Below are positions 10,530-38,685 of a stretch of 64,000 nt of DNA, in pieces. The DNA comes from Clostridia bacterium (GTDB taxonomy: Bacteria; Bacillota; Clostridia; Oscillospirales; CAG-272). The notes under the pieces are model-generated. The model was not told the origin of the DNA and ran no database searches. It was given only the letters and a program-made list of their open reading frames with translations. The position numbers were made by a program, and so were the translations under genes. Every line of letters begins with the position of its first letter. The stretch's first letter is position 1. The stretch lies in assembly GCA_017532425.1 (NCBI GenBank), contig JAFXJH010000019.1:1029-65028 (forward strand), written 5' to 3'.

Positions 10530-11327
10530 TTACTCTGCCTGATCGTGTCTTACCGCGCTGCTTCGGTAATCGGCGGGCGTCATTCCGGTGTAAGAGAGGA
10601 AGACACGGTTGAAATTTCGTATGCTCTGAAATCCGCTTTCAAGAGCTATGCTTGCAATACTGTCAGAGGTGTTTATAAGACGCTCCTTGGCGTTGTCTAT
10701 GCGGTAAAGATTTATGTACTTGCGAACATTTATCTTTACGTTCATACTGAATACCCTTGACAGATAATGAGGCTCGTATCCGAGCTCCTGCGCCATATTG
10801 ACAAGAGATATTTCTTCCTTGTATCTTTCGGAAATATAGCCGAGCATCCTGTGTATAAGCTCAGATCCCTCCTTTTTTGCCGAAACGAATTCGCTTTTTT
10901 CGTAGAAATCATTGCAAACGGCATAAAGCACGGCTTTTATTGCAAGAGGCGAACGCTTTTCTTTTTTTATACAGTATTCAATATAAAAATTTTTTACGTT
11001 TTCGTCGCAGTCGAAAATAGGGCAGACTGCATTTTTGCCGTGGATCAGCTTTGCAAAGAGGGGCACGTTGTCCTGCGAAAATACGTGTACGATAACACGG
11101 GTGTGACCGATGCTTTCGTATGAATGTATCATATTCGACAGCACGATCGCCATCTGACCGCGTTTTACGCTATATTCTTTGCTTTCTATTGTGAGGAGCA
11201 GCTCTCCTTCCTCCACGTATACAAGCTCGATGTCTCTGTGAAAATGGATAACGTAGCTAAAATCGCTGTATATCCGTATATCGTTGTTTGTAATTCCGCC
11301 CGAATTGTCTGTCTGGTATAAGATCAC
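10530..11327 (-). CDS. AraC-family transcriptional regulator (cupin sensor plus HTH)
   Basis: The C-terminal AraC HTH pair is MAQELGYEPHYLSRVF ... IASIALESGFQSIRNFNRVFLSYTGMTPADYR. The gene is divergent from the GRE1 operon. Confidence 0.9.
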   Translation of the reverse strand: MILYQTDNSGGITNNDIRIYSDFSYVIHFHRDIELVYVEEGELLLTIESKEYSVKRGQMAIVLSNMIHSYESIGHTRVIVHVFSQDNVPLFAKLIHGKNAVCPIFDCDENVKNFYIEYCIKKEKRSPLAIKAVLYAVCNDFYEKSEFVSAKKEGSELIHRMLGYISERYKEEISLVNMAQELGYEPHYLSRVFSMNVKINVRKYINLYRIDNAKERLINTSDSIASIALESGFQSIRNFNRVFLSYTGMTPADYRSSAVRHDQAE

Positions 11328-11584
11328 GATAATACCCCCGAAAGGTAAGAAGTGTAAAAAGATAATTTTTGTCTATTATTATATATTTTTTTGCTTTAAT
11401 TGTCAAGCACTTTTCTGTATAATGTAACTGATGGCAAATATGTCCGAAGCTGTAATAAAATAAGTATTTTACAGCATAATATAATAATTTTCTACTTAAA
11501 TTAGCTGTTCTTGTGCTATAATTAAAGTGAAAAGTCTTTTATTTCGTTTTGTACGCACCTTTGTGCGGAATATGAGGTGATTTT

Positions 11585-13546
11585 ATGTCGGATCTTAGAG
11601 AATTCTTACTAAACAAAAAGCATCACGCTTACAGAAAGCGTCTGCCCGAGACCTTGGCAGAAGAATATAAGAAGGCAGGTCTTGGCGACAGAGAGCGTAT
11701 GACCCGCCGCTTTGAGTATCTCATAAGCGAGGAAACTCCCGTGATACTTGAGGGCGAAAAGATCGTGTTTATAAGAACGGTAGAGAATATTCCAAACTGC
11801 TTTACCGAGGATGAATTTGACGAAATGCGTGAAAAATATTTTCTTCACGAGCTTGGATATATGTCCAATTTTTCGCCCGACTATGAGAGTGTTATAAAAA
11901 ACGGTCTGCTTTGGGTAAGAGATAAGGGAGACTCCTATCTTGCGCGTGAGATGGATGCGCTTATCGGACTTGTCGACAGATACCGCGAGGAAGCGCTCAG
12001 AATAGGACGCGACGACGTTGCAAGCGTACTTGAAAGAGTATCGAGATACGGTGCGCGCACATTTAGAGAGGCACTTCAGCTTTTCAGAATAATACACTTT
12101 GCGCTCTGGCTTGAAGGAAACTATCATAATACCTGCGGCAGATTCGATAAGTATATGTACCCCTATCTTAAGTCCGACCTTGACGCGGGAATTCTTGACG
12201 AAAACGAAGCACTTGAGCTTCTCGTCGACTTCTTCCTCTCGTTTAATAAGGACAGCGATACTTACGTCGGCGTACAGCAGGGCGATAACGGACAGAGTAT
12301 GGTGCTCGGCGGAATTGACAGCGAAGGAAACGAGACCTTTAATCTCCTTTCAAAGCTCTGCCTTGAGGCAAGCCGCAGAAATCTTCTCATCGACCCGAAG
12401 ATCAATCTGCGCGTTTCAAAAAATACTCCCGACGAGGTCTTCGAGCTCGGAAGCGAGCTGACAAAGGCAGGACTCGGATTACCTCAGTATTCAAACGACG
12501 ACGTAGTTATAGACGGTCTTGTAAAACTCGGCTATTCTCTTGAGGATGCACGCGACTACGCAGTTGCCGCTTGCTGGGAGTTCATAATCCCGAAATACGG
12601 CTTCGACGTGGCAAATATAGGCGCGCTCTCCTTCCCGAAGGTGATAGACCTTGCACTCCATACGGATAAAAAATTCGAAAGCTACGCAGATTTTGAAAAT
12701 ACCGTGTTTGAAAAGATACAGGAAGAATGTGACCGCATATGCGATGGCATAAAGAGCCTTTATTTCATACCGTCACCGATACTTATGAGTATGCTTGAGC
12801 CAAAATATCACAATTTCGGTTTGCACGGAACGGGAATAGCGACCGCGGCTGACTCTCTTGCGGCTATTGAAAAATATGTGTTCAGTGATAAAAAGCTTAC
12901 TTTTGATGAGCTGAAAACTGCGGTAGATAATGATTTTGAGGGCGACCCCGAGCTTCTTCATATGCTCAGATACGATTCTCCGAAAATGGGACAGAATCGC
13001 CCCGAGGCAGACGAAAAAGCAGTAAAGCTTCTCGCAAAATTTGCGGAAAGCCTCAAAGGAAAGAAAAACTGCGAGGGCGGAATATTCCGCGCGGGAACGG
13101 GCTCGGCAATGTTCTACCTTTGGCACGCCGCTGAAATAGGCGCATCTCCCGACGGAAGAAGAAAGGGCGAGCCCTTCGGAACAAACTTCTCGCCCAGCCT
13201 TTTCGCACGTATAGACGGTCCCTTCTCGCTGATATCCTCTTTTACAAAGCCCGAGCTTAAAGACGCAATAAACGGCGGCCCTCTGACGGTCGAGTTTGCT
13301 TCTTCGATGTTTTCGGACAGCGAGAGCGTTAAAAAGGTGGCAATGCTTGTGAAAGCCTTTATCGGAATGGGCGGACATCAGATACAGCTCAATACCGTAA
13401 ACCTCGACGTGCTTCGCGACGCGCAGGAAAATCCCGAGCTTCACAGACAGCTTGTCGTGCGTATCTGGGGATGGAGCGCATATTTCGTCGAGCTCGACCG
13501 AGAGTTCCAAAATCACGTTATGAAGCGTAAGGAGTATAGCCTGTGA
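11585..13546 (+). CDS. Glycyl radical enzyme (PFL2/dehydratase-like clade), short form (653 aa), unknown substrate
   Basis: C-terminal glycine-radical segment is QLVVRIWGWSAYFVEL. Candidate Cys loop is YAVAACWEF (C-x-E). ASPDGRRKGEPFGTNFSP and GGHQIQLNTV are typical of GRE barrels. RBS GAGGTGA is upstream. Confidence 0.85.
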   Translation: MSDLREFLLNKKHHAYRKRLPETLAEEYKKAGLGDRERMTRRFEYLISEETPVILEGEKIVFIRTVENIPNCFTEDEFDEMREKYFLHELGYMSNFSPDYESVIKNGLLWVRDKGDSYLAREMDALIGLVDRYREEALRIGRDDVASVLERVSRYGARTFREALQLFRIIHFALWLEGNYHNTCGRFDKYMYPYLKSDLDAGILDENEALELLVDFFLSFNKDSDTYVGVQQGDNGQSMVLGGIDSEGNETFNLLSKLCLEASRRNLLIDPKINLRVSKNTPDEVFELGSELTKAGLGLPQYSNDDVVIDGLVKLGYSLEDARDYAVAACWEFIIPKYGFDVANIGALSFPKVIDLALHTDKKFESYADFENTVFEKIQEECDRICDGIKSLYFIPSPILMSMLEPKYHNFGLHGTGIATAADSLAAIEKYVFSDKKLTFDELKTAVDNDFEGDPELLHMLRYDSPKMGQNRPEADEKAVKLLAKFAESLKGKKNCEGGIFRAGTGSAMFYLWHAAEIGASPDGRRKGEPFGTNFSPSLFARIDGPFSLISSFTKPELKDAINGGPLTVEFASSMFSDSESVKKVAMLVKAFIGMGGHQIQLNTVNLDVLRDAQENPELHRQLVVRIWGWSAYFVELDREFQNHVMKRKEYSL

Positions 13547-14322
13547 ACGGAAAAATATTCGATATAAAGGAATTTTCCGTGCATGACGGACCGGGCGGAC
13601 GAATAACAGTCTTTCTTAAAGGCTGTCCGCTGAAATGTCTGTGGTGTCATAACCCCGAAGGTCAGTCGCTTGAAAGCGAGCTTATGGTAAAGAGATCCTT
13701 TTGTAAGGGATGCGGAGCCTGCGTGAGAAATAAAGAAAGCGAGACCTATAAAAAATACGGCAGAGACGTTAGCGCTTGCCCCGAAAACCTTATATCGGTG
13801 GTCGGAAAAGAGTATACGCCGAGCGAGCTTGCCGATAAGATAATATCGTATAAGCCTCTGCTCGATGCGATGGGCGGCGGAGTTACCTTCAGCGGCGGCG
13901 AGCCTCTTATGCAGTACGAATTTTTGTCGGAGTGTGCAGATATTTTGCGCGAAAACGGCGTGCATATCGCACTTGAAACCTGCGGATTTGCAAAAAGCAA
14001 GGTCTTTACAGAGATACTTGCCAAGGTAGACTACGTGATGTACGATATAAAAATAATGGATAGCGAAAAGCATAAGCTCTATACCGGCTGTCCGAATGAG
14101 ATAATTCTGCAAAACGCAGAGCTTCTCAAAAAGAGCGGCGTTCCGTTTGTTTTCCGTACACCAATGATTCCCAATATCACGGATACACGTGATAATCTTG
14201 AAAGAATAGAAGAATTCACCAAAGGCTTCAGCTGGGAAAAGATACCGTATAATGAGCTTGCAGGAGCGAAATATCCGCATCTTGACAGAACTTATTCGCT
14301 TGAGATAAGCGAGAAAATATAA
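13543..14322 (+). CDS. Glycyl-radical enzyme activating protein (radical SAM)
   Basis: Contains SVHDGPGGRITVFLKGCPLKCLWCHNPE (CxxxCxxC) plus an extra Cys cluster CKGCGACV..ACPE. The GTG start overlaps the GRE1 stop codon (GTGA). Confidence 0.9.
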   Translation: MNGKIFDIKEFSVHDGPGGRITVFLKGCPLKCLWCHNPEGQSLESELMVKRSFCKGCGACVRNKESETYKKYGRDVSACPENLISVVGKEYTPSELADKIISYKPLLDAMGGGVTFSGGEPLMQYEFLSECADILRENGVHIALETCGFAKSKVFTEILAKVDYVMYDIKIMDSEKHKLYTGCPNEIILQNAELLKKSGVPFVFRTPMIPNITDTRDNLERIEEFTKGFSWEKIPYNELAGAKYPHLDRTYSLEISEKI

Positions 14323-14350
14323 TTTGAGATTAACGAAAGGACTTGAAACT

Positions 14351-15814
14351 ATGAAAAAAGTATATCTTGTAATACCCGAAAAAATAGGAAGAATAGCTCC
14401 CGAGGTCTACGGACATTTCTCCGAGCATATCGGCGGAGTGTTTTATGACGGAGTTTACGTAGGCAAGGATTCGGACGTGCCCAATATACGCGGCTTCCGT
14501 AAGGAGATAATAGAAAAGCTCAGAGATATAGCGCCTCCTGTGCTTCGTTGGCCGGGCGGATGCTACGCAGAGGTTTACCGCTGGCGCGACGGTATCGGTG
14601 AAAACCGTCCGACACGTCCGAGCTGGTGGACAAGAGACGACGGAAGATACGAGTCCAACGAGGTAGGAACTCACGAATTTATGGATTTCTGTGAGCTTAT
14701 TGGCGCAAAGCCTTATTTTGCAATGAACGTTACGTCGATAACTCCTATGGATGCACGTGATTGGATGGACTACTGCCTCTCACCGAAGGGAAGCACGACA
14801 CTTGCTCTCGAGCGTGAAAAGAACGGTCATCCGGAACCATTCGATATCCCTTATTGGGGCGTAGGAAACGAAAACTGGGGTGGCGGCGGTCATATGACTC
14901 CAGATTACTATGCTCTTGAATACCGTAAATTCTCAACGATAATGTATAATACGGTTCCCCGCGGACAGCACGTTGATCTTATCGCAGGCGGAGCTAACGG
15001 CGGCGATATCAGATGGACGGATGCGCTCGTAAAGGGACTTGAAAACTGCGGTGCTCCCGTGCACGGAATGTCCTTCCATTACTACTGCGGTAAAGCAGGC
15101 GACCCCGTGAACTTCACAGAGGATGAATGGTATCAGCTTCTCGACAGATCCGAGGTTATGGAAGAGCTGATTGTACGCCACTATGCAGGCGCGCAGGCTA
15201 AGAAGATGGAAGGCAAGCTGAAGCTCGTTATCGACGAGTGGGGATGCTGGCATCCCGACGGATCGGGCCCGAGCAAGGGATATAACCTCTTCGAGCAGCA
15301 GTCCACAATGCGCGACGCTATGGTATCCGCGCTTACTCTCAATATTTTCAACAATCATTGCGAAAAGATCAAGATGGCAAACGTTGCACAGCTTTGTAAT
15401 AATCTGCACGCGCTCTTCCTTGCAGGCGGAGAAAACTGCATAACCACGCCTACCTATCACGTCTTCAAGATGTATAAGGAGCATCAGGGCGCAGACGCAG
15501 TAAGATGCGTTACCGAAAATAACAGCGATCGCAGAAGCGCGATATCTGTTTCGGCATCCGAAAAGAACGGCTATCTGACAGTTACACTTGCAAACCGCAG
15601 CTGCACAGAGGACGCAGAGATCAGCCTCGAAGCACTCGGCGCAAGCGTTGAGGCAAATGCAAAGGCAATGCTTCTTGCAGAGGACGATATGCACGCGCAT
15701 AATACCTTTGAGGATCCCGAAAGAGTAACGATCAAGGAACTCGACGTTGACGTTTCAAAGCCGATAACTCTTCCCAAGGCGGGAATTATGAGCATTTCAA
15801 TTAAGCTTGCATAA
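14351..15814 (+). CDS. abfA: GH51 alpha-L-arabinofuranosidase
   Basis: Contains IAPEVYGHFSEHIGG, LRWPGGCYAEVYRWRDGIG and WGVGNENWG. ATG at 14351 follows GAAAGGA; the ORF-track TTG at 14324 lacks an RBS. Confidence 0.85.
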   Translation: MKKVYLVIPEKIGRIAPEVYGHFSEHIGGVFYDGVYVGKDSDVPNIRGFRKEIIEKLRDIAPPVLRWPGGCYAEVYRWRDGIGENRPTRPSWWTRDDGRYESNEVGTHEFMDFCELIGAKPYFAMNVTSITPMDARDWMDYCLSPKGSTTLALEREKNGHPEPFDIPYWGVGNENWGGGGHMTPDYYALEYRKFSTIMYNTVPRGQHVDLIAGGANGGDIRWTDALVKGLENCGAPVHGMSFHYYCGKAGDPVNFTEDEWYQLLDRSEVMEELIVRHYAGAQAKKMEGKLKLVIDEWGCWHPDGSGPSKGYNLFEQQSTMRDAMVSALTLNIFNNHCEKIKMANVAQLCNNLHALFLAGGENCITTPTYHVFKMYKEHQGADAVRCVTENNSDRRSAISVSASEKNGYLTVTLANRSCTEDAEISLEALGASVEANAKAMLLAEDDMHAHNTFEDPERVTIKELDVDVSKPITLPKAGIMSISIKLA

Positions 15815-15824
15815 AAATCACATT

Positions 15825-15853
15825 AACCGAACCGTGTTTTTTACGGTTCGGTT
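15825..15853 (+). terminator. Stem-loop after abfA (probable terminator, weak U-tract)
   Basis: AACCGAACCGT, loop gtttttt, ACGGTTCGGTT gives an 11-bp stem. The downstream T-run is only partial. Confidence 0.45.
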
Positions 15854-15951
15854 ATAAGTGTTTTATAAAGGATAATATAAAATGACTGATAATATGAAAA
15901 TGATCGCAATAGTTTATCACAAGAATGCGGGAGAAAATTTTCCGGGAATAA

Positions 15952-16214: not shown

Positions 16215-17882
16215 ATGAAAAAAATCAAGTCTGTTCTCGCACTGCTGTGCGCCTTGCTTTTAATGGTGTCATGCTGTGTAAGCTGCGGCGGAGAAAAAGA
16301 CGAGATCAAAGGCTTTGATATAAGCTCTTATACCGTAGTTCGCCCGAGCAGAGCATCAAGGGATCTTATATCGCATACTATAACCTTCAAAAATATGATA
16401 AAAACGAGTATAGGTATAGAGCTCTCGGTAAAGGAGGACTGGATACCGCCTACACAGACACTCGATGAATCGGAAAATGAGATTCTTGTCGGTGGGACTA
16501 ACAGAACAGCTACGGCAAACGCTAAGGCTAAGCTTGATGCAAGTGACGACAAAAACGCGTTTATCATCGAGATTGTCGGTAATAAGATAGTTATCCTCGG
16601 AAAAACAGACAAGATAACCGTACACGCGCTGAAATATTTCCTCGTTAATTTTGTGAGAACCTCAAAGCAGGAAGGCAAAGTGGCGATTGACGAAAATTAC
16701 AGTCAGATATCGATTGCAGATACAGAAACGGTACTGTTCGATAATTTCGTTCAGTTTAAGATGAGCGATATCGTTTCGATATACGAGCCCGAAAGCAAGT
16801 GGTCGCTTACCACCTATCAGTATCCGAAGATCATTCAGCTTCAGTACCAGGAAAAAGAAGAGAACAACGGAATTCTTTTTTCGATACTGAATTCGAGCGA
16901 GCATTTTTACCGACTTTTCAGAAGCTATGATAACGGAGACAACTGGAAACAGGTAACACAGATATACGATAAAATCAATAAAGGTGTACGCGGCGGTCGA
17001 ATGGGTACTCTGTATGAGCTTCCCGTCGATATAGGTGAATTTAAAAAGGGAACTTTGATCCTTGCGGGTACGTCGAGTGCACTGGACACGCATCCGGAAA
17101 AAACTGCGATAGTTCTTTATTACAGCACCGATCTCGGTGAAAACTGGAAAGCCTACCAGAGCATAGATTTCGCCAAAGGACGCACAAACGGTGAAGGTAT
17201 ATGGGAGCCATTCCTTATTTATGAAGAGGAAACAGAGCGCATATACTGCTTCTATTCGGACGATTCCGACCCCGAGCATGATCAGAAGCTGGTATATAAA
17301 TATACGACAGACTTTAAGAACTGGATAGGCGCAGACGGAAAAACAGGTTCTGACGCAGACCCGTGCGAGGCTGTTGCCTGTGATGATCCCAAGCTTCGTC
17401 CGGGAATGATATCTATCGCCAAAATGGGTAACGGAGAATATATAATGACCTATGAAATGGTAGGTCTTAAAATGAATCCTACCTACGCTAAGCGCACAAA
17501 GCGCCTTGACAATTGGGGGGATGTTTCAGATTACGGAACGCTCGTACAGTCAACAGACGGAGTAATATTCGGCTCATCACCTTGGTGTGCATGGAGCCCT
17601 GTCGGAGGAGAATGCGGTACACTTATAGTAGTCGGTAAGCACCGCACGGATAAGCTGGAGGATAAGACCGCGCCCGATATGTTCGTAAGCTTTGACTACG
17701 GTGGGACTTATATAGGTATAGATAACCCGATAGACTATACGATAACCAGTGAAAACCGTTGCGGTTACAGCCCCGGACTTTTCTTCTCGTCTGACGGCAA
17801 GACTCTCTATTACGTGAATAATCCGAACTACGGACCGGGAAATGAATATATTGCTTTCAGAAGAATAGAGATAATCGAATAA
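16215..17882 (+). CDS. Lipoprotein with BNR/Asp-box beta-propeller (sialidase-fold glycosidase-like)
   Basis: Signal peptide plus lipobox MKKIKSVLALLCALLLMVSC. Asp-boxes SYDNGDNW, STDLGENW, SFDYGGTY and SSDGKTLY. RBS AAAGGAGAG is upstream. Confidence 0.7.
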   Translation: MKKIKSVLALLCALLLMVSCCVSCGGEKDEIKGFDISSYTVVRPSRASRDLISHTITFKNMIKTSIGIELSVKEDWIPPTQTLDESENEILVGGTNRTATANAKAKLDASDDKNAFIIEIVGNKIVILGKTDKITVHALKYFLVNFVRTSKQEGKVAIDENYSQISIADTETVLFDNFVQFKMSDIVSIYEPESKWSLTTYQYPKIIQLQYQEKEENNGILFSILNSSEHFYRLFRSYDNGDNWKQVTQIYDKINKGVRGGRMGTLYELPVDIGEFKKGTLILAGTSSALDTHPEKTAIVLYYSTDLGENWKAYQSIDFAKGRTNGEGIWEPFLIYEEETERIYCFYSDDSDPEHDQKLVYKYTTDFKNWIGADGKTGSDADPCEAVACDDPKLRPGMISIAKMGNGEYIMTYEMVGLKMNPTYAKRTKRLDNWGDVSDYGTLVQSTDGVIFGSSPWCAWSPVGGECGTLIVVGKHRTDKLEDKTAPDMFVSFDYGGTYIGIDNPIDYTITSENRCGYSPGLFFSSDGKTLYYVNNPNYGPGNEYIAFRRIEIIE

Positions 17883-22965: not shown

Positions 22966-23778
22966 TTAATTTTTGTTGAGAATCGATTTTATATCTTCAA
23001 AATCGGCATCGCTTACAAGAGCCTCGTCGCCGAGAGTGTACTCACGTCCGAGCATCTCGTACTTGTGAAGTCCGAGCTCGTGATATTTCAGCGCTTCTAT
23101 CTTTTCGATATTCGGGAATCGGTCAAGAAATTCTTTTATCTGCATAACGTCCTCTTTGCTTGCATTAAAGGTGTTGACAACAGGAATTCTTACCCAAATC
23201 TTTGCACCGCACTGATAGAGCCTCTCAAAATTCTCAAGGATAGTGCGGTTAGACATACCCGTGAATTTTTTGTGTTGCTCGTCATTCAGCGTTTTGATAT
23301 CGTAAAGAAATAGGGAAGCGTAGGGAATAAGCTTTTCGATGTTCGAAAATTCAACCGCACCGCAGGTATCGATAGCGACCGAAATACCGTGCTCTGCAAG
23401 CTTTTTCGTGCATTCGAGGATAAAATCGCTTTGAAGCAGACATTCTCCGCCCGAGAATGTCACTCCGCCTGTGTCCGAGAAAAAGTCGGCATCAGCAAGC
23501 AAAAGCTTCACAAGAGCGTCAGATGTGTACTCCTTGCCGTATGCGACAAGCGCGCCCGCGGGGCATACCTCTGCACCGTCAACTCTGCTTTTGTCCGCAC
23601 AGCTTTTGCAGGAAATGCATTTTCTCGGATCATACATAACGGACGTATCGCGAGTCAGACCCTCGGGATTCTGACACCACGCGCATCTCAGAGGGCATCC
23701 CTTCATAAATACCGTGGTGCGTACACCCGGTCCGTCGTGTAACGAGCATCTTTGAATGTTAAAAACTCTACCTGTCAT
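22966..23778 (-). CDS. Glycyl-radical enzyme activating protein (radical SAM)
   Basis: Contains SLHDGPGVRTTVFMKGCPLRCAWCQNPE plus the ferredoxin-like cluster CISCKSCADK..CPAGAL. Confidence 0.9.
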   Translation of the reverse strand: MTGRVFNIQRCSLHDGPGVRTTVFMKGCPLRCAWCQNPEGLTRDTSVMYDPRKCISCKSCADKSRVDGAEVCPAGALVAYGKEYTSDALVKLLLADADFFSDTGGVTFSGGECLLQSDFILECTKKLAEHGISVAIDTCGAVEFSNIEKLIPYASLFLYDIKTLNDEQHKKFTGMSNRTILENFERLYQCGAKIWVRIPVVNTFNASKEDVMQIKEFLDRFPNIEKIEALKYHELGLHKYEMLGREYTLGDEALVSDADFEDIKSILNKN

Positions 23779-23785
23779 AGCTTTA

Positions 23786-24736
23786 TCAGAAGTTTGCGTA
23801 TGTCAGCTTCCTCAGGATCTCCTCGTCGAGAACATATTCGGACATAAGGAGGTTTTCTTTGAGGTGATCGATGTTGGAGGAAGAGAAGAGCGGAACGATG
23901 GTAGGACGGTTCGGGAGTCTGTCAGAGCCGATAAGCCAAGCGAGAACGAGAGCGGAGGGTGCAAGACCGAGCTCCTTTGCGCTGTCAAGAAGAACGTTAA
24001 GACGTTCGTCTATCTGATACTTTCCGGGCATTCTCGCGATATTATCATATCCGCCGCCTGCAAGACAGGAGTAGGGAACGAGAGGTATATTGTTTTCTGC
24101 AAGATAGTGAAGTCTTTCTTCGGTGGCGTTTACGTTATAGGTGTAATTGAGCTTTGCTCCGCCTTTTGTGTAAAGATAGGTGTAGCAGGGCTGGTTTACC
24201 GTGAAATCAGCAAAGCCGTTCTTTTCGGCGATATGCTTTGCTTCGCACATACGCCATGTATAATAGTTGCTCGCACCGATAGCGCGTACCTTGCCCTTCT
24301 TTATAAGCTTATCAAAAGCCTCCATCGTTTCTTCGATGGGAGTGTTCATATCGTCGCTGTGAGCGTAGTAGAGGTCGATATAATCTGTTCCGAGCTTGCG
24401 AAGACTTTCGTCGCACCAGTACTCGATCTGCTTTGCGGAAAGTCCCGCGCCCTCGCCGTGACGGTCAAAGCCGACCTTTGTAGCGATAACGAGCTTGTCG
24501 CGTCCGCCTCTTTCCTTCAGCCATTTACCGAGCAGAGTTTCGCTCTCGTCGCCCGATGCACCCGGCCACCAGTGTGCATAGTTGTTGGATGTGTCGAGGA
24601 AGTTTCCTCCCATATCTACGAAAAGATCAAGCTGCTCGAAAGAATCCTTTTCGCTTGTTTTAGTGCCGAACATCATAGTTCCGAGACACATATTGCTGAC
24701 TTCAAGTCCTGCGCGTTCAAATTTTACTTTTTTCAT
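23786..24736 (-). CDS. Aldo/keto reductase family oxidoreductase
   Basis: Contains LGTMMFG, FLDTSNNY, IATKVG, IDLYYAHSDD and VRAIGASNY, which carry the AKR D-Y-K-H tetrad positions. Confidence 0.85.
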   Translation of the reverse strand: MKKVKFERAGLEVSNMCLGTMMFGTKTSEKDSFEQLDLFVDMGGNFLDTSNNYAHWWPGASGDESETLLGKWLKERGGRDKLVIATKVGFDRHGEGAGLSAKQIEYWCDESLRKLGTDYIDLYYAHSDDMNTPIEETMEAFDKLIKKGKVRAIGASNYYTWRMCEAKHIAEKNGFADFTVNQPCYTYLYTKGGAKLNYTYNVNATEERLHYLAENNIPLVPYSCLAGGGYDNIARMPGKYQIDERLNVLLDSAKELGLAPSALVLAWLIGSDRLPNRPTIVPLFSSSNIDHLKENLLMSEYVLDEEILRKLTYANF

Positions 24737-24763
24737 TTTTGTACCTGCCTTTCCTGAGGTTAT

Positions 24764-24793
24764 GAAGCTTTGAGGCGAAGGTCACAAAGCTTC
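24764..24793 (-). other. Intercistronic stem-loop between GRE2 and the AKR gene
   Basis: GAAGCTTTG (24764-24772) pairs with CAAAGCTTC (24785-24793): 9 bp with a 12-nt loop and no U-tract. Confidence 0.4.
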
Positions 24794-24809
24794 TGCCATT
24801 GTTTTATTT

Positions 24810-26996
24810 TCAGAATGTATTTCTTGAGATGAGATCGTCCTGTGCCTTTTTGCACATATCGACGAATACTGCGCTGTATCCGGTTACGCGTACCATAAGA
24901 TCGCGGTACATATCCGGTTTTTTCTGTGCGTCGAGCAGAAGCTCCTTGTCTACAGAGCTGAGCTGTATCTGAAGTCCGCCCTTTTCAAAATATACCGCAA
25001 TAATGTGAGAAAGATTTTCGAGTCCTGCTTCGCCATCGAAATTTCTGGGCTGTATCGTTACGTTAAGAGCGCCCGAAGCAAACTGATCGAAGGGGATATT
25101 TGAAATAGAGGAGAGCATAGCCGTGATACCGTTCTTTGCCGCGCCGACAGAGGGCTGACAGTTCTGACAGATGGGATCGCCTATGCGTCTTCCGTCGGGA
25201 GTTGCGGGAATGACCTCGCCGCGAGGAATGTGCCACGTGTCGTTCTCCGTGCAGAAGCGGAGCTTGAGGAAGGACGGGCGGTCCTTTGACGCATCCTTGC
25301 AGGCGTTTACTATAGCTTTGGTAAGCTCTCTTGCATAGTAGGATGAGGTGTCGTGACCGTCCCCCATCTTCGGAGAGTTCTTGCAAAGCGCTAAAAGAAC
25401 TTGGTCGTTTTCAAAGTTCGTGTCACACGCTGTGAATATTCTTTCGGCAGAGATATTCTTTTCGTTTATGAGATAATCCACAGCAGATGCTATATCTATC
25501 ATAGTGCCTATGCCGCCGAAGGGAACGACAAGGTTGGTGTTCTGAAAATACAGACCGCCTCTTGAAATGTTTTCAAAAGTAAAGCAGGAGCAGAATCTCA
25601 GCTGATTCGGATTAAAGTAGGGTTCCTTCAGCGTGGATTTCGAAATAAGCTCGGAGAATTTACCGAAGAACGTGTCGTAAATAGACTTCAACATTCCCTC
25701 TCGTGAGAACTCGCGTCCGTTTTCAAAGCTTGCACGGATAGCCTCCATAAGGGTGGGAATAAGACAGCGTTCAACACCGTAGTAGAATACATGATAGTTG
25801 GGAGCGTCCTTCGCGGGGATCGTCGGCCAGTTGCATCCGTAAAACTCGTGCGAGAGCGCATCGTATTCGCTTTCACCGAAGCTTTTGTACATTTCGCAAA
25901 CGCTGATGTCGTTGTAGACCATGATAGAGCCGCTTGCGCGCATCTTCGAAACGAGGGTCTTCCATACGTCGGCGTGATCCTTTGCAAAATCTCTTGTGTA
26001 ACGGAAAACGATGACCGGATTTTTGTATTTCGGATGTATGCGCTCGACCATAAGCTCTGTAAGACCGTTGCATACCGTCTTCTTGGTTTCAGGGTCAGTA
26101 CCCGAAAGAATAAGATACTGCGGAGCGTCGTAGCAGAGGATTCTGTGCCATCCCGTGCAGTTGGGAGAGTTTTCGCGGTTTGATATCTGATGCTCTCCGC
26201 GTCCCATAATGAGGTTGTTCTTGGCGTAGAATTCTTCTATAAGAAGGGCAGCCGTTTCTCTGTCTATACTGCCTTCGGAAAGCTCTTTTTCATATATCTT
26301 GTTCATAAAAAGATCGAGTCTTCCGAGCGCAAGAGTCGGGTTTGGTGAAATGTAGGCGCAGAATATAAATTCAATCGACCATACGAGCTGAAAAGCGGCG
26401 TGCAGAGTTTGCGGAGCGCCGGAAGCTGCCTCTCTGCAGGCTTTTGCCGAATCAAGCAGACCTTTTGCCTCGGCGGCTTCTGCGGAGCGCTCGATAAAGC
26501 AGATGATAGATTCGTATATCATTATTGCGCCGCGCAGGAAGCTGCATTTTTCCTCACAGCCCTGCTCGGTGTATATTTTAAGAGACTTTTCTGCCTCTGC
26601 CTTGAGGGCGGGAAGACCCTTTTCTATTATATCCTTCCAGAGGAATGACTGATGTCCTGCGTCGAAAAAGAATTTCGGAATACCCTCGTTTTTCATAAGA
26701 GGGGTTATATATTTTTCGCGGAAAGCCTTTTCCTCATCCTCATTAAAGGACTCCTCAACCATACGTCCGATAAGAATATCGTTTTCGCTGACAGGAATCG
26801 AAACTCGCGATAAAAACGCCTTGAGCGCGTTGCCGAGCTTGAGAGGCTGATTTTCAATATCCTTTACCTCCTCGCATATCTCGCTCCAAAGGCGGACACG
26901 CTCGGATGAATAGGTTACTACAGGCTTTTTTGTAAGGGCATAGATAGCCTCTTTTTGCATATTTTCTCTTAAAAAATCAAAGTTTTCTCTGTTCAT
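24810..26996 (-). CDS. Glycyl radical enzyme (PFL2-like), 728 aa, unknown substrate
   Basis: Glycine-radical segment DLMVRVTGYSAVFVDM. Contains ATPDGRRIGDP and GGLQIQLSSV. Candidate Cys loop EFYGCNWPT. ATG at 26996 follows AAGGAGA; the ORF-track start at 27092 adds 32 implausible residues. Confidence 0.85.
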   Translation of the reverse strand: MNRENFDFLRENMQKEAIYALTKKPVVTYSSERVRLWSEICEEVKDIENQPLKLGNALKAFLSRVSIPVSENDILIGRMVEESFNEDEEKAFREKYITPLMKNEGIPKFFFDAGHQSFLWKDIIEKGLPALKAEAEKSLKIYTEQGCEEKCSFLRGAIMIYESIICFIERSAEAAEAKGLLDSAKACREAASGAPQTLHAAFQLVWSIEFIFCAYISPNPTLALGRLDLFMNKIYEKELSEGSIDRETAALLIEEFYAKNNLIMGRGEHQISNRENSPNCTGWHRILCYDAPQYLILSGTDPETKKTVCNGLTELMVERIHPKYKNPVIVFRYTRDFAKDHADVWKTLVSKMRASGSIMVYNDISVCEMYKSFGESEYDALSHEFYGCNWPTIPAKDAPNYHVFYYGVERCLIPTLMEAIRASFENGREFSREGMLKSIYDTFFGKFSELISKSTLKEPYFNPNQLRFCSCFTFENISRGGLYFQNTNLVVPFGGIGTMIDIASAVDYLINEKNISAERIFTACDTNFENDQVLLALCKNSPKMGDGHDTSSYYARELTKAIVNACKDASKDRPSFLKLRFCTENDTWHIPRGEVIPATPDGRRIGDPICQNCQPSVGAAKNGITAMLSSISNIPFDQFASGALNVTIQPRNFDGEAGLENLSHIIAVYFEKGGLQIQLSSVDKELLLDAQKKPDMYRDLMVRVTGYSAVFVDMCKKAQDDLISRNTF

Positions 26997-27259
26997 AGTA
27001 TGATCTCCTTGCATAGAGAATATGGGCATAGGTGTGATAGATAAAGACACTTTACACCCATTTAAGTATACCACATAAAAAATAAAAGTCAATTATCTGC
27101 AAAAATATTTAAAAAATTTTTCACTACATAAAAGTATATCTTAAACTTAATAAAATTGACTTGATTTTTTTATAAATATAGGTTATATTTTATATATAGA
27201 ATGTCTGCGTATACGTTTTGGCAGATATTATAAACGTTTTTGAAAGAGATCTGATACAA

Positions 27260-28639
27260 ATGTTGAAACTTTTCAGAAAAAATAAAGCATTTTGCAAGGC
27301 TGATAAGCTGACCTATGGCCTTCCGATAGAGAAGAATTTTTCTCCGAAGGGAATATACCTTTCCGTGTCAGAGACCTGCGTGTCTGTCGGTGAAGAGGTC
27401 GGCATAGGCTCGCTTGTCGGTAAGAATTCGGACGGAGCGTCCGTGTGCTCGGGTATTTCGGGAAAAATATCTGAGATCAAAAAGATATCCGATAGCAAGT
27501 ACGGCGTAAATATAGAAAACGATCTTGCAAAAAGACAAGGCGAATATCTCCGTCCCTTCGGCGAGGAAAACAATATAAGGGTTACCGATATCACACCCGA
27601 AATGCTGATAAGCGTTATGAAAAAGGCGTCGGTAAAAACTCGTGGACATCAGATATCGGCAAACGATCGCACGGTATTTCAGAGAATTGAGGATTCGTTT
27701 GGAAAAGCAAGACAGATAGTGATAAACTGCGTTGGCGGCGAGCCTTACGACAGCTCTTTTAAGCGCATTATGCTTGAAAACGCATCTGACGTAATAAACG
27801 GTATGAAGCTCGTTATGGCGGTTATGAAGATAGGAGAGGGCGTTCTTCTTCTCGACTCGGAGAGCAGTGAATGTGCAAATACGCTTTCGTCGATGCTTGC
27901 CCCAAAAGACAATATAAAGGTCGTTCTTGCAGATATGGCTTATCCCACGGATAACGAGCATAACGTGATATACACACTCACGTCGATAGAGATTTCGCGC
28001 AAAAGAAGCGCAGAGCGTGTTGGGTGCGTGGTATTTGATCTGCATGAGATACTTGCCGTTGCAAGAGCTTTTATTTACGGCGAGGTCGAGACCTGCGAAA
28101 TAATCACAGTATCGGGAGACGCGCTTTCAAAGCCGATGAATCTGAAGGTTCCTTACGGAACGAAAATATCCGAAATAGCCGACTACTGCGGAGTGAATAA
28201 GGATATCGACGTCAAGATTATCGCAGGCGGAGTCTTGCGCGGCAAAGAGGTCGGCACAGAGGATGTTTTTGAAGTCGGAATGTCACCTTTGGTATTACTG
28301 AACGCAAAAAAGATACCTTCATTTAACGGTGTGAGATGTATGAGATGCGGCTCGTGTATGCGCGCCTGCCCGATGCTTCTTATGCCTATGTATCTCAGCC
28401 TTTCGGGATTTTCGGGTGTCAAAGCATTCGGAAAAATGTTTGATATAAGCGCGTGCACCGAGTGCGGAGTCTGTCAGTACGTTTGCCCCGCGGGAATACC
28501 GATACTGAAGAATATACGCAGGATGAAGGACACCTTGCTGCCCGATACGGCAGATGAAAATGATAAAACTGCAGAAAATAAGCCCGAAAAAGAAGAAAAT
28601 AGCGAAAAATCGCAGGACGTCGGAGGTGACAAGCAATGA
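27260..28639 (+). CDS. RnfC-like protein (barrel-sandwich N-terminus, SLBB-like middle, 2x[4Fe-4S] ferredoxin C-terminus)
   Basis: Contains CMRCGSCMRACP and CTECGVCQYVCPAGIP, plus INCVGGEPYDSS (compare INGAECEPY in RnfC). ATG at 27260 follows GAAAGAG; the alternative TTG at 27218 has no RBS. Confidence 0.65.
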   Translation: MLKLFRKNKAFCKADKLTYGLPIEKNFSPKGIYLSVSETCVSVGEEVGIGSLVGKNSDGASVCSGISGKISEIKKISDSKYGVNIENDLAKRQGEYLRPFGEENNIRVTDITPEMLISVMKKASVKTRGHQISANDRTVFQRIEDSFGKARQIVINCVGGEPYDSSFKRIMLENASDVINGMKLVMAVMKIGEGVLLLDSESSECANTLSSMLAPKDNIKVVLADMAYPTDNEHNVIYTLTSIEISRKRSAERVGCVVFDLHEILAVARAFIYGEVETCEIITVSGDALSKPMNLKVPYGTKISEIADYCGVNKDIDVKIIAGGVLRGKEVGTEDVFEVGMSPLVLLNAKKIPSFNGVRCMRCGSCMRACPMLLMPMYLSLSGFSGVKAFGKMFDISACTECGVCQYVCPAGIPILKNIRRMKDTLLPDTADENDKTAENKPEKEENSEKSQDVGGDKQ

Positions 28640-29580
28640 CTAAAAAGGAATACGTTGTATGCCCTCCGTATGCCTCGAGCAGAGGCGACATAAGAGACCT
28701 TGACGTTTTGGTGGCTCTTATTCCTATCGTCGCTTGGGCGGTCTTTATGTTTGGCTGGAGCTCGATGCTTTTCGTTGCTGTCGGCGTAGCATCAAGCGTC
28801 GTCTTTGAGATGGTCGTCGAGCTTTTTCTGTTTAAGAAAATAGGATACGGAGTTGTGAACGCGGCTCTTACAGGACTTCTGATATCGCTGTCCGTGTCTC
28901 CGAATGCACCGGTATGGCTTCCCGTGCTCGGAAGCGCGGTGGCAATATTCGTCGCAAAATATCAGTTTGTCGTGCTCGCGGAGTACGGAAGCTTTTTCTC
29001 GCCTGCGGCTCTCGGTATGCTTATATGCGGAGTTTATCCCGAAAACGAGCATGCTTTCGTGGACGGTCTGCGAAACGCACTTTATCCCGAGGACGGAATG
29101 CTTAACGTATTTCTCGGTAATACCGAGGGAGCTCTCGGCACGGTATCCGCACTTTTGCTCGCATTTGCGGCAATATATCTCTTGCTCAGAGGAGCACTTT
29201 CATTTAAAACGGTGCTGTCCGCACTTGTCGTTATGTCAGCAATGTCACTTATGATCGTTCCTGCGTGGACTACGTTTTCCGATAATATGATATATCAGAT
29301 CATAGGCGGAGGATTTTTGTTCTATCTCGTGTTTGCGGCAGGTGACCGTATGGGCTCTCCCGTTACCGAAATGGGTAAGCTTGTCTACGGCGCGGGATTT
29401 GCGGCCCTCGTATTCGTTTTTCGATTCTATACAGACCTTCCCGCGTGTGAAGCTATGAGTGCGGTAATAATGAGTATACTTACTCCCGTGATTGATTTGT
29501 ATACAAGACAGTCACCCTTCGGCGGAGTTGTGCGCACCGCGAAACCAGAGAATGACACGCCTGCAAAATCAAAGAAATAA
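28636..29580 (+). CDS. RnfD/NqrB-like polytopic membrane protein
   Basis: Contains NTEGALGTVSALLLAFAAIYLLLRG and FAAGDRMGSPVTEMGK (compare GSLGE.SAL...L.R and ATD.VTSP in RnfD). The ATGA start/stop overlaps the RnfC-like gene. Confidence 0.6.
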   Translation: MTKKEYVVCPPYASSRGDIRDLDVLVALIPIVAWAVFMFGWSSMLFVAVGVASSVVFEMVVELFLFKKIGYGVVNAALTGLLISLSVSPNAPVWLPVLGSAVAIFVAKYQFVVLAEYGSFFSPAALGMLICGVYPENEHAFVDGLRNALYPEDGMLNVFLGNTEGALGTVSALLLAFAAIYLLLRGALSFKTVLSALVVMSAMSLMIVPAWTTFSDNMIYQIIGGGFLFYLVFAAGDRMGSPVTEMGKLVYGAGFAALVFVFRFYTDLPACEAMSAVIMSILTPVIDLYTRQSPFGGVVRTAKPENDTPAKSKK

Positions 29581-33954: not shown

Positions 33955-35427
33955 ATGACAAATATTTATCGCGATATTGCTACTCGCACCGGAGGCGATA
34001 TCTACGTTGGCGTTGTGGGACCGGTGCGCACGGGAAAATCTACGTTTATAAAAAGATTTATGGAAACGCTTGTGCTGCCGAATATATCGGACAATTATGA
34101 CAGAGAGCGTGCGAAGGACGAGATGCCTCAGTCGGCGGCCGGCAGGACAGTAATGACGACAGAACCAAAATTTATTCCCGATGAGGCAGTGAAAATATCG
34201 CTTGATGACGTTGCCTCTCTCAGCGTAAAAATGGTGGACTGCGTCGGATATATTGTTTCGGATGCACTTGGTCAGACGGAGGAAGGAAAACCGAGAATGG
34301 TGCTGACGCCTTGGTCAAGTAAGCCTCTGCCGTTCGGCGAAGCGGCGGAAATAGGCACGAAAAAGGTAATAACAGATCATAGCACGATAGGATTTGTAGT
34401 AACTACAGACGGAAGCGTGTGCGATATTCCGCGCTCACAGTATGAGGATGCGGAGCGCAGAGTTGTGAGCGAGCTTCGTCAGATGAATAAGCCGTTTGCC
34501 ATAATCTTAAATTCCGCTCACCCCGAAAGTCCGGAAAGCGAGGCACTTGCACTCGAGATCGAGGCAAGATACGGCGTGCCCGTTGCGCTTGTAAACTGTA
34601 TGACTCTCGACAGCGAGGATATTCGGCATATACTCGAGCTCGTGCTTCTTGAATTTCCGATCTCGGAGATCTCGATAGACCTGCCCGAGTGGACTCTTGC
34701 CCTTGAAAGCGATCATCCGATAATCGATTCTCTCAGAAAGGATATCGTAGACTGCGCGGGAAAAATAAGCAAAATAGGACAGATCAAAAACGCCTTTGCG
34801 AGTCTTGAAGAAAACGATTACGTATTATCGGCGACGGTAAACGATATAGACCTCGGAAACGGAAGGGCGCAGATGGCTATCACACTTGATCCGGAGCTCT
34901 ATTTCAAGGTGATAAGCGAGATGACCGGTCTTGAGATTTCGGATGAGGAAACTCTGATAGATACCTTTAAAAATCTCGCTTCGATCAAAGCGAAATACGA
35001 TAGAATATCTCAGGCACTCAGCGATGCCGAAAGTAAGGGATACGGCATAATAGTGCCAGAGATCGAGGATATGCACCTTGAAGAGCCGAAGCTTGTAAAG
35101 CATTCAGGTGGATACGGCGTGCGACTTAAAGCAAGCGCTCCGTCGATACATATGATAAAAGCAACGCTCGAGACCGAAATAAATCCGGTAGTCGGAAGTG
35201 AGCAGCAGAGCGAGGATCTTATAAAATATCTGCTCAGCGAGTTTGACGAGGACCCGACGAAGATATGGGGAACGAACCTTTTCGGAAAGACTCTGCACGA
35301 GCTTGTGAACGAGGGACTGCTTGCAAAGCTTGCAAACGTGCCCGATAATGCACGCGAAAAGCTGTCCGAAACGCTTAGCCGCATTGTAAACGAGGGAAGC
35401 GGCGGACTTATATGTATAATTCTTTAA
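33955..35427 (+). CDS. spoIVA: Stage IV sporulation protein A (spore coat morphogenetic ATPase)
   Basis: Contains IYRDIATRTGGDIYVGVVGPVRTGKSTFIKRFME and MPQSAAGRTVMTTEPKFIP, with the C-terminal GGLICII. Confidence 0.95.
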   Translation: MTNIYRDIATRTGGDIYVGVVGPVRTGKSTFIKRFMETLVLPNISDNYDRERAKDEMPQSAAGRTVMTTEPKFIPDEAVKISLDDVASLSVKMVDCVGYIVSDALGQTEEGKPRMVLTPWSSKPLPFGEAAEIGTKKVITDHSTIGFVVTTDGSVCDIPRSQYEDAERRVVSELRQMNKPFAIILNSAHPESPESEALALEIEARYGVPVALVNCMTLDSEDIRHILELVLLEFPISEISIDLPEWTLALESDHPIIDSLRKDIVDCAGKISKIGQIKNAFASLEENDYVLSATVNDIDLGNGRAQMAITLDPELYFKVISEMTGLEISDEETLIDTFKNLASIKAKYDRISQALSDAESKGYGIIVPEIEDMHLEEPKLVKHSGGYGVRLKASAPSIHMIKATLETEINPVVGSEQQSEDLIKYLLSEFDEDPTKIWGTNLFGKTLHELVNEGLLAKLANVPDNAREKLSETLSRIVNEGSGGLICIIL

Positions 35428-35769: not shown

Positions 35770-36567
35770 TTAATTGCGAGAGTCTATGGATTTTTTATAG
35801 TCTCTCGGACTAACACCAAACTCCTTTTTAAACATATGGCTCAGATAATGCTCGTTACAAAATCCCAGAGTCTGAGCTATTTCGTATAGAGTTATGTTGG
35901 GGTAATCGTTTAAATATTGCTTTGTGCATTTTAATTTATGATGCAAGATGTACTGATGCATCGGCATACCGTACGTCTCTTTGAAAATATTTTCAACAGT
36001 TCTCTGACAGAGATGAAAATGCGAAGCGATCTCCTTGTTTGTTTGGCTACCGTTTGTGTAAAGAATATAATCCCTGATCTGACTTGCAAGAGTTGGCTTA
36101 TCGACGCTTGATGAGATACGGCTTAGTTCATACAGTAGTGTATTTACGTAAGACGTTGCAAGTGTAGAATCGCCCTTGAGCTGTGTGAGTCCCTGAAAGA
36201 GCGTTCTGATGTGAGGAGCGCTTCCTGCGTTTATCAAATGGTCTAAAGTAACGTATTCCGATGCGCCTGAGTTGTCAATGTCTCTGCCGTCGCCTGCTTC
36301 TGGATAGATATGAAAATAGATTATTTTAGTGTTTGGTGAACACGGGGTGACGCCGCGATGCGTTATGTTGGCGGGAAGAAAAACAATGTCGTTTTTCTTC
36401 AAAGGTATGACCTTGTTTTGCAAAGATACACACCACTCCCCCTCAAGCATATAGAAAAAATCGTGAACGTCAAGATTTCTTGTATCGTGAATGTGGGGTG
36501 CTTTAAACTGAAGCTGATTCGCTCGCTGAAGTTTTCTTGTGTTGGTTACCGAAAGTATATATGACAT
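35770..36567 (-). CDS. AraC-family transcriptional regulator
   Basis: Cupin-like N-terminus. C-terminal HTH is IASHFHLCQRTVENIFKE..IAQTLGFCNEHYLSHMFKKEFGVSPRDY. The gene is divergent from the GH127 gene. Confidence 0.9.
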   Translation of the reverse strand: MSYILSVTNTRKLQRANQLQFKAPHIHDTRNLDVHDFFYMLEGEWCVSLQNKVIPLKKNDIVFLPANITHRGVTPCSPNTKIIYFHIYPEAGDGRDIDNSGASEYVTLDHLINAGSAPHIRTLFQGLTQLKGDSTLATSYVNTLLYELSRISSSVDKPTLASQIRDYILYTNGSQTNKEIASHFHLCQRTVENIFKETYGMPMHQYILHHKLKCTKQYLNDYPNITLYEIAQTLGFCNEHYLSHMFKKEFGVSPRDYKKSIDSRN

Positions 36568-38660: not shown

Positions 38661-38685
38661 AAATATTTGCATAATATTGTTTAGT

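Follow-up and report, generated by a model that had tools for sequence, protein, structure and literature searches.

A short glycyl radical enzyme of an uncharacterised Clostridia lineage, encoded with its activase and a GH51 arabinofuranosidase

The window analysed in this study is a stretch of 64,000 nucleotides from a Clostridia bacterium (order Oscillospirales, CAG-272; assembly GCA_017532425.1, contig JAFXJH010000019.1, positions 1,029 to 65,028 of the forward strand). It carries a gene for a short glycyl radical enzyme (GRE), which is followed by the genes for a radical S-adenosylmethionine (SAM) activase and for an alpha-L-arabinofuranosidase of glycoside hydrolase (GH) family 51, and which is preceded by a divergent gene for an AraC-family regulator (Table 1). 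The sequence comparisons placed this GRE in a large, compact (about 650-690 amino acids) and uncharacterised lineage of Clostridia. On balance, the analysis favoured a radical C-O eliminase or isomerase of the C-x-E type that would act on a carbohydrate-derived substrate in plant-glycan utilisation loci and that would not be specific for arabinose.

This gene order, with a 653-residue GRE, an activase overlapping it and GH51 about 28 nt further on without an intervening terminator, had been described in an initial annotation of the same DNA, and it was confirmed in full from the open reading frames (ORFs). A ribosome-binding site, GAGGTG, precedes the ATG of the GRE gene by 5 nt. The GTG start codon of the activase overlaps the TGA stop codon of the GRE as GTGA (a 4-nt overlap), and AAGGAG precedes this start. 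The mechanical start of the GH51 gene was a TTG at 14324; the ATG at 14351, which lies 28 nt after the activase stop, is likely to be the real start and was preferred because gene callers use it on a 99%-identical contig (L081). No terminator-like site was found inside the GRE-activase-GH51 unit, including the activase/GH51 junction, and a hairpin with a stem of 12-13 bp, 6 G-C pairs and T-runs on both strands lies about 10 bases past the GH51 stop. The GRE-activase pair is thus predicted to be co-transcribed with the GH51 gene as one unit.

In the control region, a perfect TTGACA-17-TATAAT promoter on the minus strand (11406 to 11378) would drive the AraC gene, and a TGcTATAAT-like sequence on the plus strand, around 11514-11524, may be an extended -10 element, as called by eye. 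The 257-nt leader gave no match to a riboswitch or known RNA element in Rfam at E<=1, and a search of the region for AraC operator-like direct repeats revealed none, only weak AT-rich inverted repeats. The regulator contains a C-terminal helix-turn-helix (HTH) domain (Pfam HTH_18, 2e-21) and an N-terminal cupin (AraC_binding, 1.8e-8, and Cupin_2), and this divergent, dedicated sugar-type regulator probably controls the operon. The product of the third gene was assigned to GH51 by its Pfam domains (Alpha-L-AF_C, 3.1e-38, and ASD1_dom) and matched AbfD3 (2vrk) across residues 13-460 (phmmer E 1.6e-109). Its score was below the cutoff of the ArfA equivalog (187.9 vs 625), and no signal peptide was found in its sequence.

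Table 1. Features of the GRE locus (positions counted from the first letter of the window).
Feature	Positions	Strand	Basis
AraC-family regulator gene, divergent from the GRE operon	10530..11327	-	ORF listing and Pfam
Divergent control region, 257 nt, AT-rich	11328..11584		between AraC gene and GRE gene
Short GRE gene, 653 amino acids, of the WGW / C-W-E / Asn-for-His lineage	11585..13546	+	Pfam, AlphaFold2, Foldseek
Codon of Asn95, aligned with the general-acid His164 of glycerol dehydratase	11867..11869	+	profile alignment to 1r8w
Cys loop A328-A-C330-W331-E332-F333	12566..12583	+	aligned to GCVE of 1r8w, 8yjo
Gly loop V625-R-I-W628-G629-W630-S-A	13457..13480	+	aligned to RVaGYSA of 1r8w/8yjo/CutC
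Cognate GRE-activating radical SAM enzyme, 259 amino acids	13543..14322	+	NCBIfam, position, Cys pattern
Cytoplasmic GH51 alpha-L-arabinofuranosidase, 487 amino acids from ATG, third operon gene	14351..15814	+	Pfam, phmmer
Intrinsic-terminator-like hairpin, bidirectional, closing the GRE-activase-GH51 unit	15824..15854		stem and T-runs
Context gene, lipoprotein-type GH93-like exo-alpha-1,5-arabinanase, 555 amino acids	16215..17882	+	phmmer

Fold, catalytic loops and relation to known enzymes

The GRE was recognised by the Pfam families PFL-like (4e-78) and Gly_radical (2.2e-16) and, as had been noted before, it is shorter than the PFL2-type enzymes, which have 776-850 amino acids where structures were solved. 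The AlphaFold2 model, built with 78 homologs, had a predicted local distance difference test score (pLDDT) of 94.2 and a predicted template modelling (TM) score of 0.93. Foldseek comparison of this model with more than 40 GRE structures gave query TM scores of 0.84-0.89 at probability 1.00. Since the model superposes on every solved PFL2-type GRE across its whole length (TM 0.83-0.89), the 10-stranded barrel is predicted to be complete. The sequence was 19-25% identical to every solved GRE and about equally distant from all of them. Relative to the glycerol dehydratase (GDH) structure 1r8w, about 130 residues are missing, of which about 60 belong to an N-terminal helical region and the rest to trimmed surface loops and helices.

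HMMER alignments to 1r8w and to PflD (8yjo) placed the catalytic loops. The sequence VRIWGWSA forms residues 625-632 and AACWEF residues 328-333; G629 fell on the radical Gly, and C330 and E332 fell on the catalytic Cys and Glu, with C330 matching C433 of GDH and the Cys of the G-C-V-E loop of PflD. These alignments indicated that the Trp-flanked Gly is the radical Gly and that the C-x-E motif is intact, in agreement with both proposals of the initial annotation. The enzyme had also been called motif-divergent, which was true in part. Its Gly loop does break the older PROSITE-type pattern R-[IVT]-[CSA]-G-Y at two positions. However, the fingerprint now used in the field is RVxG[FWY]x6-8[FL]x4Qx2[IV]x2R (PMC13450708, PMC11528403), and the C-terminus R626-I-W-G629-W-SAYFVE-L-DREF-Q-NH-V-MK-R fits it with a conservative Ile-for-Val change at position 2 as the sole deviation, so that the divergence had been overstated; Val stands at this position in 31 of 78 relatives. 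The marks by which the superfamily is recognised, namely a barrel with Cys and Gly finger loops, the fingerprint, the catalytic Cys and an adjacent CX3CX2C activase, were all found. Moreover, a C-x-E Cys loop marks the 1,2-eliminases and isomerases among GREs (PMC13450708), and it is present here as C330-W331-E332.

In spite of this, the curated GRE subfamilies did not accommodate the protein. Its NCBIfam scores were 291.8 for TIGR01774 (PFL2-3; cutoff 678.2), 258.8 for HypD (1100), 235.3 for the PflD-type NF007437 (1109), 233.6 for HpfG (1000), 202.8 for CutC (1050) and 70.6 for the pyruvate formate-lyase (PFL) model TIGR01255 (994.2). Membership in any curated GRE equivalog was rejected, with scores 4-5 fold under cutoff.

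The best sequence and fold matches were GDH of Clostridium butyricum (1r8w/1r9d) and the propanediol dehydratases 5i2a and 9rco. The match to GDH reached E 2e-73 with the single sequence and 3e-150 with the family profile, at TM scores of 0.84-0.87, and the two enzymes share the 10-stranded barrel, the positions of the Gly and Cys loops, C-x-E and an adjacent PFLE_PFLC-type activase. However, the GRE is only 22-25% identical to the glycerol and propanediol dehydratases and about 130-190 amino acids shorter, and it does not keep the residues that line the GDH pocket in the 1r9d structure. H164 is replaced by N95, D447 by N344 and the Tyr of G-L-Y-P-S-S (index 639 of the aligned 1r8w chain) by G506, and the Y339 loop is deleted, with G-D-N-G-Q instead. 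In addition, V434 and the Ala before the radical Gly have each become Trp. Because most of the glycerol-binding residues are changed, the alignment to 1r8w suggests a larger, polar and uncharged-to-basic pocket, which is consistent with a pocket roomier and more polar than that of GDH.

Among the characterised GREs, only YbiW and PflD have sugar substrates; these isomerases of 'anhydroglycolysis' are 1,5-anhydroglucitol-6-phosphate and 1,5-anhydromannitol-6-phosphate C-O lyases, which use C-x-E chemistry and cleave a ring C-O bond (PMC13450708). PflD was the second-best single-sequence match in the PDB (YbiW/PflD structures 8id7, 8id0 and 8yjo), in one stretch over residues 145-651, and a sugar-utilisation context is common to YbiW/PflD and the present GRE. 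They differ in identity (19-24%), in the NF007437 score given above and in the His that PflD has where the GRE family has an invariant Asn (the alignment showed PflD, not YbiW). Furthermore, the substrates of YbiW/PflD are sugar phosphates derived from the phosphotransferase system (PTS), whereas recurrent kinase or PTS genes are absent from the GRE loci, which hold ABC transporters and exo-glycosidases instead. CutC, HypD and other PFL2-type 1,2-eliminases likewise have the same fold (TM 0.83-0.89), C-x-E and a dedicated activase, but they are 21-22% identical to the GRE, and in all of them the Gly loop is the canonical RVAGY and the Cys loop GCVE. The Trp pair is shared with uncharacterised RVWGF / C-W-E clades (about 680-750 amino acids) and with RVWGWSG sisters (674-691 amino acids, for example P0367 of Biomaibacter acetigenes), which mostly have Asn for His, are intermediate in compaction and lie in sugar-linked contexts; they differ from the GRE of the window in sequence (30-50% identity) and in their neighbours, a CUT2 ABC transporter and NagA/NagB.

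A literature search for a GRE linked to arabinan or arabinofuranosidase, alpha-galactosidase, monosaccharides or polysaccharide-utilisation loci found nothing relevant. A GRE review of June 2026 describes no GRE of the WGW or arabinofuranosidase-linked kind and speaks of entire clades without experimental validation. Within these sources, the earlier remark that no characterised GRE is tied to arabinan or arabinosides holds.

The activase scored above the cutoff of TIGR02494 (PFLE_PFLC; 241.5 bits vs 174.35), with the Pfam domains Radical_SAM and Fer4_12, and its CX3CX2C motif lies at C28/C32/C35 and is invariant in the family. In most activases of the GRE family, a compact insert carries 8 Cys, a number that would suffice for two auxiliary clusters. 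The activase of the window and that of the closest public relative of the locus (L001, from the Oscillospiraceae metagenome-assembled genome SIG672, whose GRE is 91% identical) have a reduced ferredoxin-like insert with only C54, C57, C60 and C79, which suggests a single auxiliary [4Fe-4S] cluster. They would be intermediate between the PFL activase, which has no auxiliary cluster, and typical GRE activases, which have two (review, PMC13450708).

A compact lineage and its gene neighbourhoods

A homolog search that covered 5.8 billion proteins returned well over 100 clusters of 653-664-residue proteins at about 65% identity to the GRE. These proteins came from Oscillospiraceae, Lachnospiraceae, Acutalibacteraceae and other Clostridia, and their sources include gut samples of humans (Hadza among them), ruminants, deer and goats. 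Homologs number thousands in human, ruminant and other gut metagenomes, and 275 stretches of species-representative genomes encode a relative. Among the 50%-identity representatives of an exhaustive search, short GREs of about 640-710 amino acids extended down to about 30% identity, and canonical enzymes of about 780-800 amino acids surfaced only near E of about 1e-70.

The peculiarities of the enzyme are features of this lineage. In 97 aligned representatives, the Trp before the radical Gly and the Trp after the catalytic Cys were coupled, since 42 had both, 40 had neither and 15 (9 + 6) were mixed, and the median length fell from 783 amino acids in canonical members to 724 in W-G-F/Y and 688 in W-G-W members. 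Asn occupied the position of GDH His164 in all 25 W-G-W representatives, and His was found there in 42 of 46 canonical ones. The W-G-W and C-W-E motifs are thus not peculiar to the GRE of the window; they mark a lineage that is very large and uncharacterised. Across 78 family sequences, N95, C330, W331, R626, W628 and G629 were invariant, E332 was kept in 77 and W630 in 67; G233-D-N-G-Q237, K272, N344 and R/K502 were likewise invariant or nearly so. In 80 species-level homologs, 154 of the 653 positions were invariant (294 were at least 90% conserved), which argues for strong purifying selection and against a decaying paralog. When aligned, six full-length relatives of the short clade (P0129, P0160, P0163, P0180, P0184 and P0194; 634-681 amino acids, 31-43% identity) were without the catalytic Cys, without the radical Gly or without either; AAGSCF with VCVRDW, and GASSSI, are examples. 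These proteins might be pseudo-GREs that lack catalytic activity, or a misalignment of these columns might account for the pattern.

The gene neighbourhoods were compared in 80 loci fetched from species-representative genomes, in which ORFs were called and clustered and the clusters typed; some counts use 79 loci, and 40 loci had full flanks, that is, at least three genes on both sides. The activase adjoined the GRE in at least 74 of the 80 loci. Full-length homologs of the AraC protein lay divergently upstream of the GRE in about 22-23 of the 80 (32-41% identity, 87% in L001) and a LacI-type regulator lay upstream in about 11-13; sugar-type regulators of either kind were present in 34 of 79. 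A GH51 gene followed the activase in five of the 80 loci, namely L001, L048, L051, L070 and, as a truncated copy, L049. The first four have the order AraC-GRE-activase-GH51, and L049 has LacI. The GH51-linked GREs occupied at least two separate places on a neighbour-joining tree, which indicated that the four-gene cassette is recurrent but a minority arrangement. The GH51 linkage pointed out in the initial annotation is therefore conserved, though weakly.

The commonest partner was a Raffinose_syn/GH36-like protein of about 640 amino acids, closest to plant alkaline alpha-galactosidase/raffinose synthase, which lay within two genes of the GRE-activase module in 18 of 79 loci. Genes of the GH36-like or GH51 kind that directly adjoin the module invariably share its strand, with gaps mostly of -3 to 45 nt, and this suggested that they are alternative occupants of one co-transcribed slot. 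No position in the alignment of the 80 GRE homologs separated GH51-linked from GH36-linked members, and the GRE of the window was 64.6% identical to GH36-linked and 62-63% identical to GH51-linked ones; the clade therefore looks isofunctional whatever glycosidase is adjacent. The arabinose link is a local one, one version of a wider link to sugar-releasing enzymes. A substrate derived from arabinose-containing glycans, as first proposed, is too narrow for the family, given the frequencies of GH51 and GH36-like genes in the same slot and the lack of a discriminating residue in the GRE. The data support a carbohydrate-derived substrate in glycan-utilisation loci.

A recurrent carbohydrate-related neighbour, either a sugar regulator or a GH gene within 3-4 genes, was found in at least 50 of 79 loci, which is a lower bound because contigs were short and only recurrent clusters were counted, and in 31 of the 40 loci with full flanks. 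On longer contigs the module sits inside Gram-positive glycan-utilisation loci. The typical order there is a CUT1 ABC transporter, GH36-like, GRE, activase, a Cof/S6PP-type HAD phosphatase and DUF4867, and the surroundings hold GH2, GH3, GH27, GH38, GH39, GH78, GH88, GH94 and GH106 enzymes and carbohydrate esterases. In the sister clades of 674-691 amino acids, the neighbour is a CUT2 monosaccharide ABC transporter, as in Biomaibacter acetigenes, or the order is AraC-GRE-activase-NagB-NagA.

Two further arrangements were observed. In L002, L010, L035, L091 and L093, DUF4867 (about 200-215 amino acids) and the HAD phosphatase directly follow the activase, before or near the GH36-like gene, and both are candidates for processing the substrate or product of the GRE. 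In an Acutalibacteraceae subclade (L011, L031, L047, L056, L060 and L062), another activase-like gene, of about 228 amino acids, comes after the GRE-activase pair, and in L031, L056, L060 and L062 the anaerobic ribonucleotide reductase NrdD follows, so that two glycyl-radical systems are clustered. The loci of this subclade adjoin very large (>2000 amino acids) surface proteins and GDSL esterases.

Proposed chemistry and competing explanations

Since the GRE-activase pair lies in carbohydrate operons with GH36-like or GH51 genes, its substrate is most likely a cytoplasmic sugar or sugar-derived small molecule released in plant-glycan breakdown. The following cycle is proposed from knowledge of the superfamily (PMC13450708) and from the residues conserved here. 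The activase, with its C28/C32/C35 cluster and one auxiliary cluster, would abstract the C-alpha hydrogen of G629, and the stored radical would produce a thiyl radical on C330. This thiyl would remove hydrogen from a substrate carbinol carbon, and E332 of the C-x-E motif would deprotonate the substrate hydroxyl to give a ketyl radical. Expulsion of the beta leaving group by C-O cleavage would then amount to a 1,2-elimination or to a ring-opening isomerisation of the YbiW/PflD type, and the product radical would regain its hydrogen from C330.

Several observations weigh against a carbohydrate-directed C-O eliminase or isomerase. In GDH, His164 is the general acid for the leaving group (PMC13450708), and this residue, used by the C-O dehydratases (the glycerol and propanediol dehydratases and HypD) and by YbiW/PflD, is missing from the GRE, which has Asn95 instead. 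The leaving group may accordingly depart unprotonated by such an acid, H181, H414, K272 or R502 may substitute, or the chemistry may differ from any known. The types of neighbouring genes are heterogeneous, and about one third of the loci had no recurrent carbohydrate gene. Moreover, no consistent downstream product-processing enzyme, such as a kinase, aldolase or aldehyde dehydrogenase, was found among 254 neighbours, so that the pathway cannot be closed; the low-frequency downstream candidates in this set were the HAD phosphatase (about 5), DUF4867 (about 3-5), aldo-keto reductases (3) and short-chain dehydrogenases/reductases (SDR; 3).

Other explanations were weighed against the same data. 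The GRE might act specifically on L-arabinose or another product of arabinan or arabinoside breakdown, with GH51 supplying the substrate. The cassette in the window, with a GH93-like exo-arabinanase next and GH127 nearby, speaks for this, as do the recurrence of the cassette order with GREs that are only about 62% identical and that fall in two or more parts of the tree and the presence of GH51 in five of 80 loci, which is far above chance for one GH family. Indeed, with a GH93-like lipoprotein just downstream and GH127 at 36.7 kb, the local context is more arabinan-flavoured than the initial annotation had stated. The families GH27 and GH36 include beta-L-arabinopyranosidases, so that arabinose or a homomorphic sugar might be set free by the GH36-like neighbours as well. 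On the other hand, 75 of the 80 loci are without GH51, the commonest partner is GH36-like, no residue of the GRE discriminates the linkage, the enzyme is no closer to GH51-linked than to GH36-linked members, and the neighbour family lists held no araA-, araB- or araD-type genes next to the module. We consider arabinose specificity unlikely. Somewhat less likely still is a function unrelated to carbohydrates, in which the position in sugar loci would reflect co-regulation on plant glycans or the hitch-hiking of a mobile two-gene module. In its favour, the activase alone is near-universally linked, the neighbours vary greatly, and some clades adjoin NrdD/NrdG, GDSL lipases, leucine-rich repeat (LRR) surface proteins or nothing recognisable. 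It fits poorly, however, with the neighbouring slot on the same strand, at almost no distance, being held by one GH family in 18 of 79 loci and by another in five of 80, with the sugar-type regulators in 34 of 79 loci, and with the sugar transporters and amino-sugar genes beside the sister clades.

The structural matches raise the question of a trimmed, B12-independent diol or glycerol dehydratase, acting on glycerol or on 1,2-propanediol formed from rhamnose or fucose via GH78 and GH106. Its best matches are 1r8w, 5i2a and 9rco, C-x-E is kept, and GH78 and GH106 rhamnosidases recur near the module. The identity to these enzymes is nevertheless no better than to CutC, HypD or PflD, and the GDH residues His164, Tyr339 (with its loop), Asp447 and the GLYPSS Tyr are all changed. 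The PFL2-3 score is less than the cutoff, and the Aldedh and bacterial microcompartment shell families were absent from the top-25 neighbour families of the 254 neighbours; this dehydratase is improbable. A pyruvate (or 2-ketoacid) formate-lyase, finally, is suggested by public records, which read 'pyruvate formate-lyase' or 'formate C-acetyltransferase', and by the Pfam family PFL-like. The Cys loop of PFL is a Cys-Cys pair (PMC13450708), whereas A-A-C-W-E has a single Cys followed by Trp-Glu; the TIGR01255 score is far below its cutoff, and PFL (1h16) was among the weakest PDB matches (E 4e-17). This assignment was rejected as highly implausible.

A bolder form of the carbohydrate-directed eliminase or isomerase can be put forward tentatively: the WGW/C-W-E/Asn GREs might be a new functional class that cleaves C-O in a free, non-phosphorylated plant sugar or derivative. 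Candidate substrates are the galacto-configured pyranose common to L-arabinose and D-galactose, a sugar methyl ether or an unusual pectic sugar. L-arabinopyranose and D-galactopyranose are stereochemically homomorphic, and one pocket for both may explain why GH51 and GH36-like genes swap in the same slot; alternatively, the common substrate might be an aglycone or polyol, or else a pectic sugar that is methylated or unusual. If such a class exists, it would represent an unknown route of anaerobic carbohydrate catabolism, widespread in gut and rumen Clostridia. The Trp pair packed around the junction of Gly and Cys, and a pocket built on Asn and without His, would be its hallmarks.

GREs perform chemically difficult anaerobic reactions, and CutC, HypD, IslA and HPAD reportedly became major gut-microbiome activities after their substrates were identified. 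Sugar-acting GREs were recognised only in 2024. Uncharacterised GRE clades are to be expected, and the WGW lineage is a prevalent and well-defined one with a tractable hypothesis space. Its sublineage in the window combines coupled Trp residues, Asn for His, trimming by about 130 amino acids and an activase with half the usual auxiliary Cys. The window thus offers a concrete and abundant target with a clear signature and a testable context, the tight co-transcription with exo-glycosidases, and the compact GRE and small activase may reconstitute more easily than canonical GREs. Discovery of the substrate would bring either a further step of fibre fermentation or a radical chemistry not seen before.

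Other genes of the window

The protein encoded at 16215-17882 matched the exo-arabinanases 3a71 (phmmer E 7e-31) and Arb93A 2w5n (E 3e-26) and also 2ydt, and it had no Pfam or NCBIfam match. Its signal sequence ends in a Cys-rich lipobox-like stretch, and the gene is kept beside the cassette in L001, which has two tandem paralogs, and in L081. Its structural matches are fungal, and the protein is apparently a GH93-like enzyme of bacteria (Clostridia) that the profile libraries fail to recognise. No transporter was found in the immediate GRE locus. On the strength of homology, a supply line is plausible in this bacterium in which the surface GH93 enzyme would release arabino-oligosaccharides that are imported and then cleaved by the cytoplasmic GH51 enzyme.

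At 35770-40782, a second AraC-type regulator is divergent from a GH127-family gene and a gene for a DUF4964-DUF5127-GtaA_6_Hairpin protein, which is probably another glycosidase. The best NCBIfam match of the GH127-family protein was aceric-acid hydrolase, below cutoff. This regulator was rejected as a paralog of the GRE-linked AraC protein, because the likeness is limited to the HTH domain.

A second, unrelated GRE operon lies on the minus strand at 22966-27092 and comprises GRE2 (24810-27092), an aldo-keto reductase (23786-24736) and its own activase (22966-23778). GRE2 has about 728-760 amino acids, the Gly loop LMVRVTGYSAVF and a G-C-N-W Cys loop with no Glu at C+2. It is uncharacterised, 24% identical to the first GRE, and scored 205.7 bits against the PFL2-3 cutoff of 678.2. 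Its activase is 36% identical to the first one and likewise has only 4 Cys in the insert. Genes for RnfC/RnfD-like proteins and SpoIVA (27218-29580 and 33955-35427) also occur in the window, which points to a spore-forming, Rnf-containing Clostridia genome.

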